The position numbers and the translations under genes are program-made. 64,000 bases of DNA from Eledone cirrhosa (Eukaryota): assembly GCA_964016885.1 (NCBI GenBank), contig OZ024757.1, positions 19,654,001 through 19,718,000 of the forward strand. Reading direction: 5' to 3'. Shown here one piece after another: positions 3,470 through 63,762 of this stretch. Each line of letters starts with the position of its first letter. The first letter of the stretch is position 1. Under the pieces are notes generated by a model. It saw nothing but the letters and a program-made list of their open reading frames with translations, searched no databases and was not told the origin of the DNA.

Positions 3470-3660
3470 ATATTTAATATAGAAAGGCTTCTACAGGACT
3501 AGGACTGTTTCATTCGGGAGAAATCATCAGGAAGCCTGATGATTTCTCCTGAATGAAACAGTTCTAGTCCTGTAGAAGCCTTTCTATATTAAATATTTAT
3601 ACTCTGCTTTGTATTGAGTACCTTACTTACTGTGCTTGCCACCGATTGAACCTGGGATAA
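3470..3660 (+). mobile_element. Fold-back (palindromic) pLTR mini-element with hammerhead core and tail
   Basis: Near-perfect arms of about 61 bp (3470-3530 / 3536-3596) around GAAGC. The arm contains CTGATGA TTTC-tcct-GAAT GAAA. The tail ACTCTGC..GTATTGAGTAC..CCGATTGAACCTGG follows. Confidence 0.8.
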
Positions 3661-3886
3661 ACTTATATATATATATATATTATATATATTATATATATAT
3701 TATATATTATATATATTATATATATATTATATATTATATATATTATATATATATTATATATATATCTATCTATCTAAGGCGGGTAAAATTCCCGAGATCC
3801 ATGGACGAGTTCTCTCCAGCGGTCTCTGTCCCTCATTATCGCTGCCATGTCCTGCGTCTCCAACGTATGTATATATATATAGAGAG

Positions 3887-4320
3887 AGGCACATGGCTTA
3901 GTGGCTAGAGCATTGGGCTTGCAATCGAAAGGTTGTGAGTTCAATTCTCAGACCGGGTGATGTGTTGTTTCCTTGAGCAAGACACTTTATTTCACATTGC
4001 TCCAGTTTACTCAGCTGTAGAAATGAGATGATAGGGACTGGGGTCCCTATCATTCCACTGCAAAGTGGTTGTGGAGGTGCCACAGCAAAAAAAGCACCAA
4101 GTCCACACTGTAAAGTGGTCGTGGAGGCGCCACGGCAAAGAAGCACCAAGTCCACACTGTAAAGTGGTCGTGGAGGTGCCACGGCAAAAAAGCACCCAGC
4201 ACTCACTGTAAATGAGGTTGGTGTTAGGAAGGGCATCCAGCTGTAGAAATCAAGCCAGAATTAGTTCTCGTCCCACCCTTGTAAGCAGGGAAAAAGCGGA
4301 CGTAAAATGAAATGATGATG
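3887..4320 (+). mobile_element. tRNA-derived CORE-like SINE with 3 internal units of about 48 bp
   Basis: Near-identical head to 2343. A partial related head lies at 4370-4495. Confidence 0.85.
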
Positions 4321-5589
4321 ATATATATATATATGTACATATATATATATATATATAGAGAGAGATACCAAGGCACGTGGCTTTATGGTTAGGTTATTCG
4401 GCTTTCAATCATAAGGTTGCGAGTTTGATTCCCGGCGGTGCATTGTGTTCTTGAGCAAGACACTTCATTTCACGTTGCTGCAGTCCACTCTACTGGCACT
4501 CGCACTTGTTGGCCCAAGGGATTTTAAGGAACAGGGAATCCTTCGAAAAACTATTGTTAGAAATATATGCAATAATACAAGGCACTCTACTAATGTATTG
4601 AGTTCCTCACTTACTGTGTCCCCCCCCCCCCCCCCCGATTGAACCTGGGACTCACACACATATATACACACAATCACACATATATACACACACACACACC
4701 ATCATTATCATCATAATCACCATCATCACCGACAGCTGACTCTCTACGATATCATCATCATCATCATCATCAATGTTTAACGTCCGTGTTCCACGCTTGC
4801 ATGGGTTTGGACGGGGGTAGTCCCACTTGGGGCAAGAGTGATTGTCTTGCTCGCATAGGACTGTCTGGCAGGTTTTCTACAGTTAGATGCCCTTCCTAAC
4901 ACCAACCACATTTACAGTGTGGGTCTGGGAGGTTTTTACCGTGTTGCCTACACGGCCACATTACAGCGTGGACTGTCTGGCGGGTTTTCTACAGCTGGAT
5001 GCCCTTCCTAACACCAACCACATTTACAGTGTGGGTCTGGGAGGTTTTTACCGTGTTGCCTACACGGCCACATTACAGCGTGGACTGTCTGGCGGGTTTT
5101 CTACAGTTGGATGCCCTTCCTAACACCAACCACATTTACAGTGTGGGGCTGGGAGGTTTTTACCGTGTTGCCTACACGGCCACATTACAGCGTGGACTGT
5201 GTGTTTTTTGTCGTGACACCTACACAATCTCATTTGTTTCGGCCTGGATGGTGTGGCACCAACATAACTTTACATAGAACGGGGTGGTGTGGATGGGGTG
5301 GGGGTGGTGGTGGTGGGACGGGGGGGGGGTATTTTGTTTGAGATGCCTACTGGCTGTAGTAGGTTTTACTATGTATTTATATATATATATATGTATATAT
5401 ATATATATATATATATATATATATATATATACCAAGATAATAATAAATGGAAACTATATTTATAAAACCATATTTATTTCAAGAGTGACCAAGCCAATCT
5501 TGGTGCGCTTTCATCAGATAAAATTTGTTTTATAAATACAACTCCAACATATATATATATATATATATATATATATATATATATATATA

Positions 5590-6060
5590 TGTAAAAGGCT
5601 TCTCCCTCAAAATGAAAGGCAGACTGTATGATGCGTGTATCCGAACAGCAATGTTACATGGTAGTGAGACCTGGGCGCTGAAGGTGGAAGACTTATGTAG
5701 ATTAGAGAGAAACGTAGCCTGCATGCTCCAATGGATGTGTAATAGTAATATACGCGAACGACAAAGCATAAATGAATTGAGAAAGAGACTGAGCATAAAT
5801 GGAATCATGCTGTGTGCAGGAGAGACGGTTTTGTTGGTATGGACATGTGATGCGTATGAAGGATGACAGCTGCATAAAAAGGTGCAGAGCACTAGAAGTC
5901 GATGGAAACCGCGGAGTGGGGAGACCCAAGATGACCTGGGATGAGGTGATAAAAGCCGACCTTACCCAATTACACCTCTCAAAGGCGATGACACACGACA
6001 GTGACCTCTGGCGTCACGCAGTAATACAGAGTACCCGACCTTCCATGGGTACAAGGTGAA
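5590..6060 (+). mobile_element. RTE-clade LINE 3' fragment (frameshifted)
   Basis: KGRLYDACIRTAMLHGSETWAL...RRFCWYGHVMRM...RGVGRPKMTW...DSDLWR. Confidence 0.85.
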
Positions 6061-6359
6061 TCATATAGACAATATGCCCCCACACCCTCCCACTGCAAGG
6101 TGGTCGTGGAGGCGCCACGGCAAAAAAGCACCCAGCACACACTGTAAAGTGGACGTGTGGGCGCCACGAAAAAGCACCCAGCACTCACTGTAAATGAGGT
6201 TGGTGTTAGGAAGGGCATCCAGCTGTAGAAATCAAGCCAAATCAGTTCCTGTATGAGCAAGGCATGGTCAGCCGACCAGACACTGCCCACAACAGGACAA
6301 CCCGTCTAACCCATGCTAGCGTGGAAGAACGGACGGAAAACGGTGATGATGATATATAT

Positions 6360-6535
6360 GAGGAAGACCACGAAAAACATGGGTGGAGGTGGTGAGAGCT
6401 GACCTCAGATCACTGAAGCTCACAGAGGAGATCACGAAGGACCGTGATAAATGGAGAGATGCTGTGCTGAAGTGGACCCATCCCACCTTTGCAAGCAGGG
6501 AAAAGCGGACATAAAATGATGATGATGATGATGAT
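6360..6535 (+). mobile_element. RTE LINE extreme 3' end
   Basis: GRPRKTWVEVVRADL...DRDKWRDAV, followed by CCCACCTTTGCAAGCAGGGAAAAGCGGAC and a (TGA)n tail. Confidence 0.75.
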
Positions 6536-6699
6536 GTCTGTTTTAGTGGTTTGGCTGTTGGAATCATGACTAGGATCATGGATTTGATCCTTGTTCTTGT
6601 CAGTGTGTTGTATTCTTGGGCAAGACACTTCATTTCATGTTACTTTACATGATATGACTGAGAGGAAACTTCTTGGAGTGTGGTGTTAGTGATAAGACT

Positions 6700-62412: not shown

Positions 62413-62629
62413 AAACTGTATACAATAAATATTTTTGTTTTAAATAACTAAATATATATTTATAAATATTTTTTCTTATCTTCTTTCAGGTGAGTATCAC
62501 TTTCTACCTGGCTGTGATTAATATATTGGTATTTTACCTACTTTAAGGTAATGTTTTGAACTTAACTATTTATATATCATGACACCATTACCATAACTTC
62601 GAAGTCACTGTCATCTCTTCAGAAAATAT
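62413..62629 (+). other. Duplicated 217-bp block (copy B)
   Basis: Same sequence at offset 61839. The exon-like segment 62490-62547 is identical to copy A. Confidence 0.6.
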
Positions 62630-62756
62630 ATCTTCTAATCTCTCCATATGTATTAAGTGTTAAAATAACAGGCCATGGACCTGTCATTTTTATCTAAAGA
62701 CATTTTTTCCAATTCCAACCCACCCGTCCCCTCAATTTATCTTATTTCTCATTCTT

Positions 62757-62792
62757 TCTTCTGATGAAGGACTAGGATCCGAAACGTTAAGA
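62757..62792 (+). ncRNA. Minimal hammerhead ribozyme (family B)
   Basis: TCTT CTGATGA A GGA-ctagga-TCC GAAA CGTT|AAGA, within the pLTR fragment at 62665-62875. Confidence 0.82.
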
Positions 62793-63145
62793 CAGACACT
62801 CTTCCTGCTTTATAACCTAATATATCCCTTCCATATACTCTACCGATTGTGTTGTTATTTGTATTTACCTTTTACATATATATGTATGTATGTATGTATA
62901 TATATATATATATATATATATATATATATATATATGTATATATATATATATACATGTATATATATATATACATATCTCTCTCTATATATATATATATACA
63001 TATCTATATATATATCTATACATATATATATATATATATATATAAACATATCTATATATATATCTATACATATACATATATATATATATATATATATATA
63101 TATATATATGTTTATAAATATATATATATATATATATATATATAT

Positions 63146-63280
63146 ATTGTTATACTTTGGGAGGGTCATGTTGCCAATACGAAACACACGCACCAGTTGC
63201 TTTCACTTCAATTTATTATAATATTGGTTTCAACACACGATTTCAGATAAAGAATCTTGCTAAACAAATCAGAAACGAAA
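63146..63280. mobile_element. Solo rearranged pLTR end of the same PLE (inverted body + direct tail)
   Basis: TATTGTTATACTTTGGGAGG...TTATTATA (reverse of the pLTR body) is joined to ATATTGGTTTCAACACACG...GAAACG (the tail), inside (TA)n. Confidence 0.8.
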
Positions 63281-63571
63281 TATATATACATACATATATA
63301 TATATATATGTATATATATATATATACATATATATATATATATATATATGCCTTTCATAGGTTATAGATTCCATACACTGGTGTTTTTGTTTCCTTGTTT
63401 TATTGATAATGCACTGTATATCTCTCTCTGGTGTGTTACCTTTTCAACATATTGTATTTTAAAGAGCTCAGGATTTCTTGTCTTTTGAGCACATTATTTA
63501 CAGGGAATAGCGAGGGCCTATGCCTCCGTTAATTTATCATGATATATATATATATAAATATATATATATAT

Positions 63572-63762
63572 AGTTTTAATATAGATGAGATTCTACAGGA
63601 CTAGAACTGTTTCATTCTTTAGAAATCATCAGATTCCTGATGATTTCTAAAGAATGAAACAGTTCTAGTTCTGTAGAATCTCATCTATATTAAAACTTTT
63701 ATACTCTGCAATGTATTGAGTACATTACTTACTGTGGTTACCTCCGATTCAACCCGGAATAA
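63572..63762 (+). mobile_element. Second fold-back mini-element of the same family
   Basis: Arms at 63572-63632 / 63637-63697 around ATTC. Same core (CTGATGA TTTC-taaa-GAAT GAAA) and same tail. Confidence 0.8.

Follow-up and report, generated by a model that had tools for sequence, protein, structure and literature searches.

Head-to-head stubs of Penelope-like elements in the Eledone cirrhosa genome and a proposed origin by dual priming

Palindromes in the window and their parent elements

A 64,000-nucleotide stretch of the Eledone cirrhosa genome (assembly GCA_964016885.1, contig OZ024757.1, positions 19,654,001 to 19,718,000 of the forward strand; hereafter the window) carries seven short palindromes, at 1068, 3291, 3470, 7531, 21746, 57800 and 63572. 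Six of them are pseudo-long terminal repeat (pLTR) ends of Penelope-like elements (PLEs); the exception is 21746. An earlier note, made from the letters alone, had read all seven as hammerhead-bearing mini-elements with a single layout of (TA)n, inverted arm, direct arm and unpaired tail. All seven do exist, with arm identities of 83–100% (90/90 at 1068, 67/81 at 3291, 64/67 at 3470, 61/63 at 7531, 43/45 at 21746, 45/46 at 57800 and 60/61 at 63572), and once microsatellites are removed perfect inverted repeats of at least 20 nt occur in 6 bins of the window and in 0 in each of 20 shuffles. The layout is less uniform than supposed: the tail at 3291 lies on the left, its element being on the minus strand, and 21746 belongs to no repeat family. 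The latter was rejected as a family member when the flank to its right matched the genome only once, at itself, and it probably arose at (TA)n with no transposon involved. It is one of three palindromes in the window that are centred on a microsatellite and have short unique arms (21746–21841, 40355–41090 and 5395–5590).

The remaining six represent families A (3470), B (63572), C (7531), D (1068), E (57800) and F (3291), laid out in Table 1. The kinship proposed for 3470 and 63572 is borne out, the two being 84% alike. DNA searches over the 3.0-Gb genome, with 30 loci examined per family, gave as lower bounds on first-look candidates at least 2028 for A, 761 for B, 707 for C, 99 for D, 1616 for E and 1998 for F. 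Copies share a constant 3′ end at (TA)n, and their 5′ side is a plain truncation, an inverted arm or a run-on into long upstream sequence. Family B has (TA)n on both flanks of its insertions. At loci L031–L039, PLE ends from many families are nested in one another's (TA)n flanks and simple-repeat 3′ untranslated regions (UTRs), making clusters.

One locus (L032) holds an entire family B element of ~5.5 kb. A truncated copy in inverted orientation is followed by a pLTR of 233 bp, a frameshifted open reading frame (ORF) for reverse transcriptase (RT) and a GIY-YIG endonuclease (EN), a 3′ UTR of simple repeats (2.9 kb), and another pLTR, this one tailed. Three further loci (L150, L158, L167) likewise continue from pLTR into ORF, and in these parent elements the family B tail is the sequence leading into the ORF. 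Four families are tied to coding elements of their own. An EN-like ORF lies 0.9–1.0 kb upstream of family D at five loci and an endonuclease ORF upstream of family E at five to six (distances for the two families, 0.8–1.4 kb); family C has an ORF start downstream at one locus only (L217), and family A is tied to a coding element through its identity to B. No ORF link was found for family F at the loci examined. The suggestion that the palindromes are ORF-less PLE products has held, directly so for family B, whose arms are the pLTR of an element coding for RT and GIY-YIG EN, and the fold-backs are almost certainly stubs of coding PLEs.

By its motifs the family B parent would be a Hydra-clade PLE: the ORF pieces of the entire element carry RWR (R in place of K), SDKT, CxCX5C, CxxC and CxH. 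The protein retains YIG and gives a weak Pfam match (E=0.028), and no CCHH motif was seen on reading the sequence by eye. A Pfam search with the parent RT returned 0 families, and a search among solved structures gave no match for a homologue; unnamed homologues of at least 722 aa number 112. Four public contig runs yielded nothing on element starts or ends.

Table 1. Stub components and associated features in the window
Feature	Position	Strand	Details
Family B tail-less (inverted) arm	63573..63632	-	element positions +66 to +7
Family B direct arm	63631..63696	+	+1 to +66; +1 = 63631
Family B complete type I hammerhead	63631..63681	+	6-bp stem I; U-U at stem II base; predicted cut after 63675
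Family B one-sided tail	63697..63767	+	~70 nt; then (TA)n
Family A tail-less arm	3473..3537	-	contains complete hammerhead of copy 3470 (3485-3537, 7-bp stem I)
Family A direct arm	3535..3593	+	begins at core; 3-nt overlap (CCT) with other arm
Family A tail	3594..3662	+	then (TA)n
Family D stub	1068..1419	+	inverted arm 1068-1243; direct arm 1243-1333, variant core; tail to 1419
Family F stub	3214..3445	-	tail 3214-3280; direct arm 3281-3362; inverted arm 3368-3445; hammerhead 5′ half lost
Family C stub	7532..7741	+	inverted arm 7532-7592; direct arm 7600-7662; tail to 7741; canonical core absent
Family E stub	57800..57962	+	arms 57800-57831 and 57841-57879; tail to 57962; truncated 3′ of own hammerhead
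Microsatellite-centred palindrome	21746..21841	.	single-copy flank; outside the system
Unrelated PLE ORF	58789..60795	-	668 aa; RT + GIY-YIG; Cx2-5CxxC linker

Ends, stop point and agreement of the arms

Family B provides the largest body of junctions. Its positions are counted from +1, the A of AGATTC and first base of stem I. A pattern requiring both arms found 3001 fold-backs with spacers of 35–65 nt, 849 with 66–96 nt and 102 with 97–127 nt, and the reversed-pattern control found 0; short fold-backs number at least 3,850, and an exact 34-mer of the family occurs 11,026 times. Detailed figures come from 100 of the 3850, namely the 50 copies listed first in each of the two bins with the shortest spacers, all on one contig. 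The tail, ~70 nt long, is on one arm in 97 of these and on both in one. The tailed arm starts at +136 in 61 copies and within +133 to +138 in 79 (the remainder mostly shortened by the ungapped walk), and the tail-less arm starts at +66 in 51 and at +60 in 24. Tail-less solo stubs also exist (L168, L209), which indicates that +66 serves as a priming end independently of +136. Rare copies tailed on both arms were noted at two loci (L029, L195). Small, weak hairpins begin 5–8 nt beyond +66 and +136 in family B (L032, L150, L158, L167), and one lies likewise beyond the long end of family D (L245, L270); these are candidate RT start signals.

The inner ends meet a wall. Among the 200 arms 129 end at -1 to +2 and only four reach -3 or further, and among 35 arms drawn regardless of inversion 18 end at -2 to +24, one at -6 and 16 beyond -60. 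Family B arms either halt at this wall or extend far past it. The site, 63631 in the window copy, is a predicted transcription start: the parent pLTR has a TATA box 30 nt upstream, TATAAATA starting exactly at -30, and family A has the same geometry. The wall of family A peaks at +2 (13 of 47 arms). That of family C is equally sharp (23 of 55 arms in two adjacent positions) and lies at an initiator-like TCA that lacks a neighbouring canonical core. Since family C has a wall without an adjacent core, and the predicted cut in family B falls at +45, the wall is not set by the ribozyme. The turn-back just 5′ of the core that the earlier note described is real at 3470 and 63572, where it lies at the core or just 5′ of it, and is confined to their lineage; in the 57800 family, turn-back points are scattered over ~300 nt.

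The two arms of a copy agree in a telling way. In 94 of 95 copies the loop II variant is the same on either side, against a mean of 42.8 and a maximum of 57 in shuffles. Over +10 to +54 in 84 copies, 46 variants are shared by the two arms, and 44 of these fall at four subfamily positions; another 43 are confined to one arm (23 and 20). Because subfamily variants agree and private ones do not, the arms must have started out identical when inserted and have diverged since without ever being homogenised; the idea of later homogenisation fails on the same counts. At 3470 and 63572 the arms do group by copy and not by side, with 1–2 differences within a copy and 8–10 between copies. The claim that every difference is mirrored in both arms is right as to co-variation, with one-sided exceptions (two differences in 3470, one in 63572). 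A seemingly systematic arm difference (TTC direct, TCC inverted) proved to be query bias, at ~1/50 in unbiased copies with most public-run contigs reading C, and ADAR-type editing as its cause was dropped.

Was one arm copied from the other, as the earlier note proposed? In the 80 copies with unequal arms the tail-less arm reaches further 5′ in 43 and less far in 37 (p=0.58). In the 1068 copy the inverted, tail-less arm exceeds the direct arm by 86 nt, and at one locus (L037) it does so by ~5 kb and includes the whole ORF, which is contrary to that proposal. The same junction also occurs as mirror-image versions. These asymmetries, with the tail-less solo stubs, fit two cDNAs that were primed separately. 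Their inner ends are coupled: each of the 10 stopped arms for which an inverted partner exists is matched by a partner stopped at or 3′ of +2, and among 50 listed copies of the 97–127 bin, judged by eye, ~34 pass +1 on both arms, 15 on neither and none clearly on one. Coupling and subfamily concordance together point to a single RNA behind both arms.

Inserts are present at 63 of the 100 junctions, and short overlaps also occur. Of the 29 inserts that are at least 6 nt long, 26 have a match in the arms (shuffles: mean 16.1, maximum 23), and locally templated inserts are expected under microhomology-mediated joining. G precedes +1 in 37 of 50 insert-bearing arms (the native C in 8), as a copied cap would give. 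At one locus (L153) the arms are joined via the 6-nt complementarity of stem I. Distinct junctions make up 82 of the 100. Because the recurrent ones occur on different subfamilies, with different outer ends, the fold-back units are probably not mobile, and the notion of a mobile retrozyme-like class is not supported. The same diversity, with a tail that lies outside the repeat, agrees with the view that these are not miniature inverted-repeat transposable elements, in that fixed terminal inverted repeats with a fixed spacer were not found.

How much ribozyme do the stubs retain? The predicted family A/B hammerhead has the core and three stems, with stem I pairing in three compensated forms and a U-U in place of G10.1-C11.1. 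Complete hammerheads number two in 39 of the 100 copies, one in 35 and none in 26. The description of the palindromes as hammerhead-bearing applies best to 3470 and 63572, which alone have the canonical CTGATGA core. At 1068 the core is the variant CAGAAGA, the truncation at 3291 has removed the 5′ half of the family hammerhead and that at 57800 the whole of it, and the 7531 family has no upstream CTGANGA. A ribozyme core on both strands had also been proposed; in the window copies 3470 and 63572 the complete hammerhead, stem I included, is on a single strand. Folding of whole-stub transcripts gave -106 and -98 kcal/mol for the hairpin against -37 and -30 kcal/mol under hammerhead constraint, so that the full transcript is predicted to form a long hairpin and not a ribozyme, favoured by ~69 kcal/mol. 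Isolated pLTR folds were no stabler than shuffles, and their minimum-energy fold is not a hammerhead. An Rfam scan of the window had no hammerhead family among the matches listed (150 of 372), which were microsatellite-driven, of miRNA type and below gathering score.

Further observations concern the core motif. Family D has a hammerhead-like fold with core CAGAAGA in place of CTGANGA (window 1264 on the plus strand, 1137 on the minus strand) that appears conserved across the sampled loci (L244–L273). Family C (7600–7662; L214–L243) shows a sharp 5′ wall together with GAAA and a stem-III-like hairpin, with no upstream CTGANGA, and its ribozyme is possibly atypical or lost. Eight more core motifs lie at 943 (-), 62761 (+), 20792 (+), 27969 (-), 5517 (-), 27560 (+), 25922 (+) and 27339 (-), several of them in other PLE-end families and mostly without a fold-back.

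The PLE near 58.8 kb has an uninterrupted ORF, lacks its 5′ end and has a hammerhead pLTR of its own at 58301–58480. PLEs like it had been suggested as possibly mobilising the stubs in trans; it shares no DNA or protein similarity with families A–F and has motifs of a different clade, and this role was rejected for it. A second truncated copy of this PLE, with a short inverted piece, lies at 32708–33437. The window also contains two copies of a short interspersed element with a tRNA-like head (2340–2600 and 3888–4100) and minisatellite arrays of 40–48-bp units (1520–1810 and 56.3–57.8 kb).

Proposed dual priming and its rivals

The formation of inverted, one-tailed PLE insertions is stated to be unresolved in PMC8557442 and PMC11167929. 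The observations on family B suggest a sequence of events. A (TA)n target would be nicked on both strands, and each strand would act as primer for reverse transcription of one and the same mRNA, close to the 5′ end, with the fixed points +136 and +66/+60 as the two internal RT start sites. Both cDNAs would then run off the start of the RNA, +1 being the putative capped transcription start, a reading drawn from promoter geometry. A single RNA would serve both copies, for which the enzyme would need strand displacement, and the cDNA ends would be joined head-to-head by microhomology-mediated repair with locally templated inserts. Priming on the downstream pLTR of a read-through RNA would let copies extend into the 3′ UTR and ORF and give the long head-to-head insertions. 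The hammerhead would be a passenger at the start of the RNA. A PLE protein assayed in vitro nicks both strands and extends them, reverse transcription beginning at two internal sites that flank the tail; it is predicted to be dimeric and does not need hammerhead cleavage (PMC11167929). Taken whole, dual priming near the 5′ end of one mRNA, run-off and head-to-head joining is the account that probably applies, with real room for error.

Several points tell against it. The 100 copies were chosen for short spacers and exact anchors on a single contig. Families E and F have a diffuse wall, and that of D coincides with a native 5-bp hairpin. Strict coupling is contradicted by the 1068 copy, in which one arm halts at the wall and the other passes it by 86 nt. 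Some recurrent inserts hold one orientation relative to the tail (5/5), which would not be expected of a fully symmetric model. Nor is a cap signature proven, as local templating can also yield G before +1, and an extra G is seen in only ~4 of 22 plain stubs (by eye). In vitro, no start-site difference between the strands was seen (PMC11167929). Finally, +1 also looks like a 3′ splice acceptor, and a Drosophila virilis intron ends at helix I (PMC4209133).

This last resemblance underlies the main alternative reading of +1, in which priming is dual and RT is stopped by a splice junction, a processing site or a protein block and not by the transcription start. Family B has a pyrimidine tract and CAG before +3, similar acceptor-like motifs stand at the walls of A, C and D, the D. 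virilis intron fits, and the internal promoter of Penelope in D. virilis lacks a TATA box (PMC2377424). Among 96 insert-bearing arms, however, no fixed first-exon sequence precedes +3, and no 7-mer there maps to a plausible nearby donor; TATA stands exactly at -30 in two families, the predicted hammerhead cut falls at +45 and not +1, and 16 of 35 arms overrun the site by more than 60 nt. This reading is improbable, slightly more so than snap-back self-priming, which is itself unlikely. In the latter a single cDNA folds at the RNA end and copies itself, and later central deletions of the palindrome give symmetric junctions. Palindrome centres are prone to deletion, the recurrent 3–4 nt tips keep one orientation, and identical arms would need no two enzymes on one RNA. 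The idea has been put forward for head-to-head PLE palindromes (PMC3846280). It requires, however, that the tail-less arm be contained in the tailed one, and this is at odds with the 43 of 80 copies in which it is longer, with its excess at 1068 and L037, with the mirror-image junctions and with the tail-less solo stubs. Both arms mostly still stand at +1/+2, so there is scant room for later deletion.

The earlier idea of a mobile, non-autonomous retrozyme-like class, in which the whole fold-back unit is copied, has very little probability left. It draws on the copies in thousands, on the 18 of 100 junctions that repeat another, on the 39 copies that retain a complete hammerhead on both strands and on known non-autonomous PLE derivatives (PMC8557442; bioRxiv 10.64898/2026.07.22.740005). 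Copies with an identical junction nevertheless differ in loop II subfamily and in their outer ends, 26 of 100 copies are without a complete hammerhead, the stubs have no TATA box, there are no head-to-tail arrays, and sizes form a continuum up to kilobase arms. Private variants are common only to L195 and L196, which lie 2.3 kb apart.

Returning to dual priming, a broader extension can be entertained as a tentative conjecture. PLE insertion in general may proceed through double target-primed reverse transcription, with two start sites used on a single RNA; initiation at the upstream pLTR would give paired strong-stop cDNAs that run off the cap. The stubs would then be failures of a strand transfer that normally takes the cDNA to the RNA 3′ end and rebuilds the pLTR, as in LTR elements. 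If true, stubs would map the transcription start and both RT starts of each family from genome sequence alone. More immediately, thousands of minimal junctions form a large natural record of PLE insertion that discriminates self-priming from double priming, and a stop point that predicts the transcription start at single-base resolution would be a testable clue to how PLEs insert.

Relation to known systems

The palindromes are a known kind of structure and not a new element class. Two familiar processes offer parts of the picture. In L1 twin priming two primers use one RNA, the products are joined by microhomology, and the copies cover adjacent RNA segments, whereas the arms of a PLE stub cover the same segment. 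Retroviral strong-stop DNA arises when RT runs off the capped 5′ end after internal priming; it is tRNA-primed and not integrated. A literature search, with subscription papers and bioRxiv supplements beyond its reach, found no published account of a common stop point or of double priming.

Hammerheads recur in the closest comparisons. Pairs of minimal hammerheads on opposite strands, 100–700 bp apart and ascribed to truncated PLEs, show the same dual layout; in PMC4209133 they occupy one sentence, without junction analysis or mechanism. Like metazoan non-LTR retrozymes (PMC7229834; bioRxiv 10.64898/2026.07.22.740005), the stubs are ORF-less, hammerhead-bearing and pLTR-related. Those retrozymes are head-to-tail arrays, each unit with a type I hammerhead, that give circular RNA (PMC7229834); the stubs are head-to-head single junctions, and propagation as an ORF-less unit, by which such retrozymes are recognised, was not found in the sample of 100. 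With the Hydra clade (PMC8557442; supplement including Hydra-1_Obim) the family B parent has in common the RW-basic, DKT, CxCX5C, CxxC and CxH motifs, a putative C-terminal GIY-YIG, a type I hammerhead and (TA)n targeting. It differs in its ~5.5-kb length and microsatellite-rich 3′ UTR, Hydra elements being generally, as a tendency only, under 3 kb (PMC8557442).

Poseidon of Anolis in vitro (PMC11167929) likewise has two internal RT starts flanking the tail and both strands nicked and extended, and 5′ truncation of its RNA shortens the product; the study saw no strand bias of start sites and does not address inverted products or run-off at a natural RNA start. The nearest genomic match is the published unit of EN-containing (EN+) PLEs, an insertion with an inverted 5′-truncated copy and a one-sided tail of 30–40 bp (PMC8557442; Pen2a_Av, PMC3846280). 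The stubs share its head-to-head pLTRs, its tail on one arm, its short junction overlap and its AT-rich target. They depart from it in being 130–200 bp long in thousands of copies, with a tail of ~70 against 30–40 nt and both arms halting at one point.

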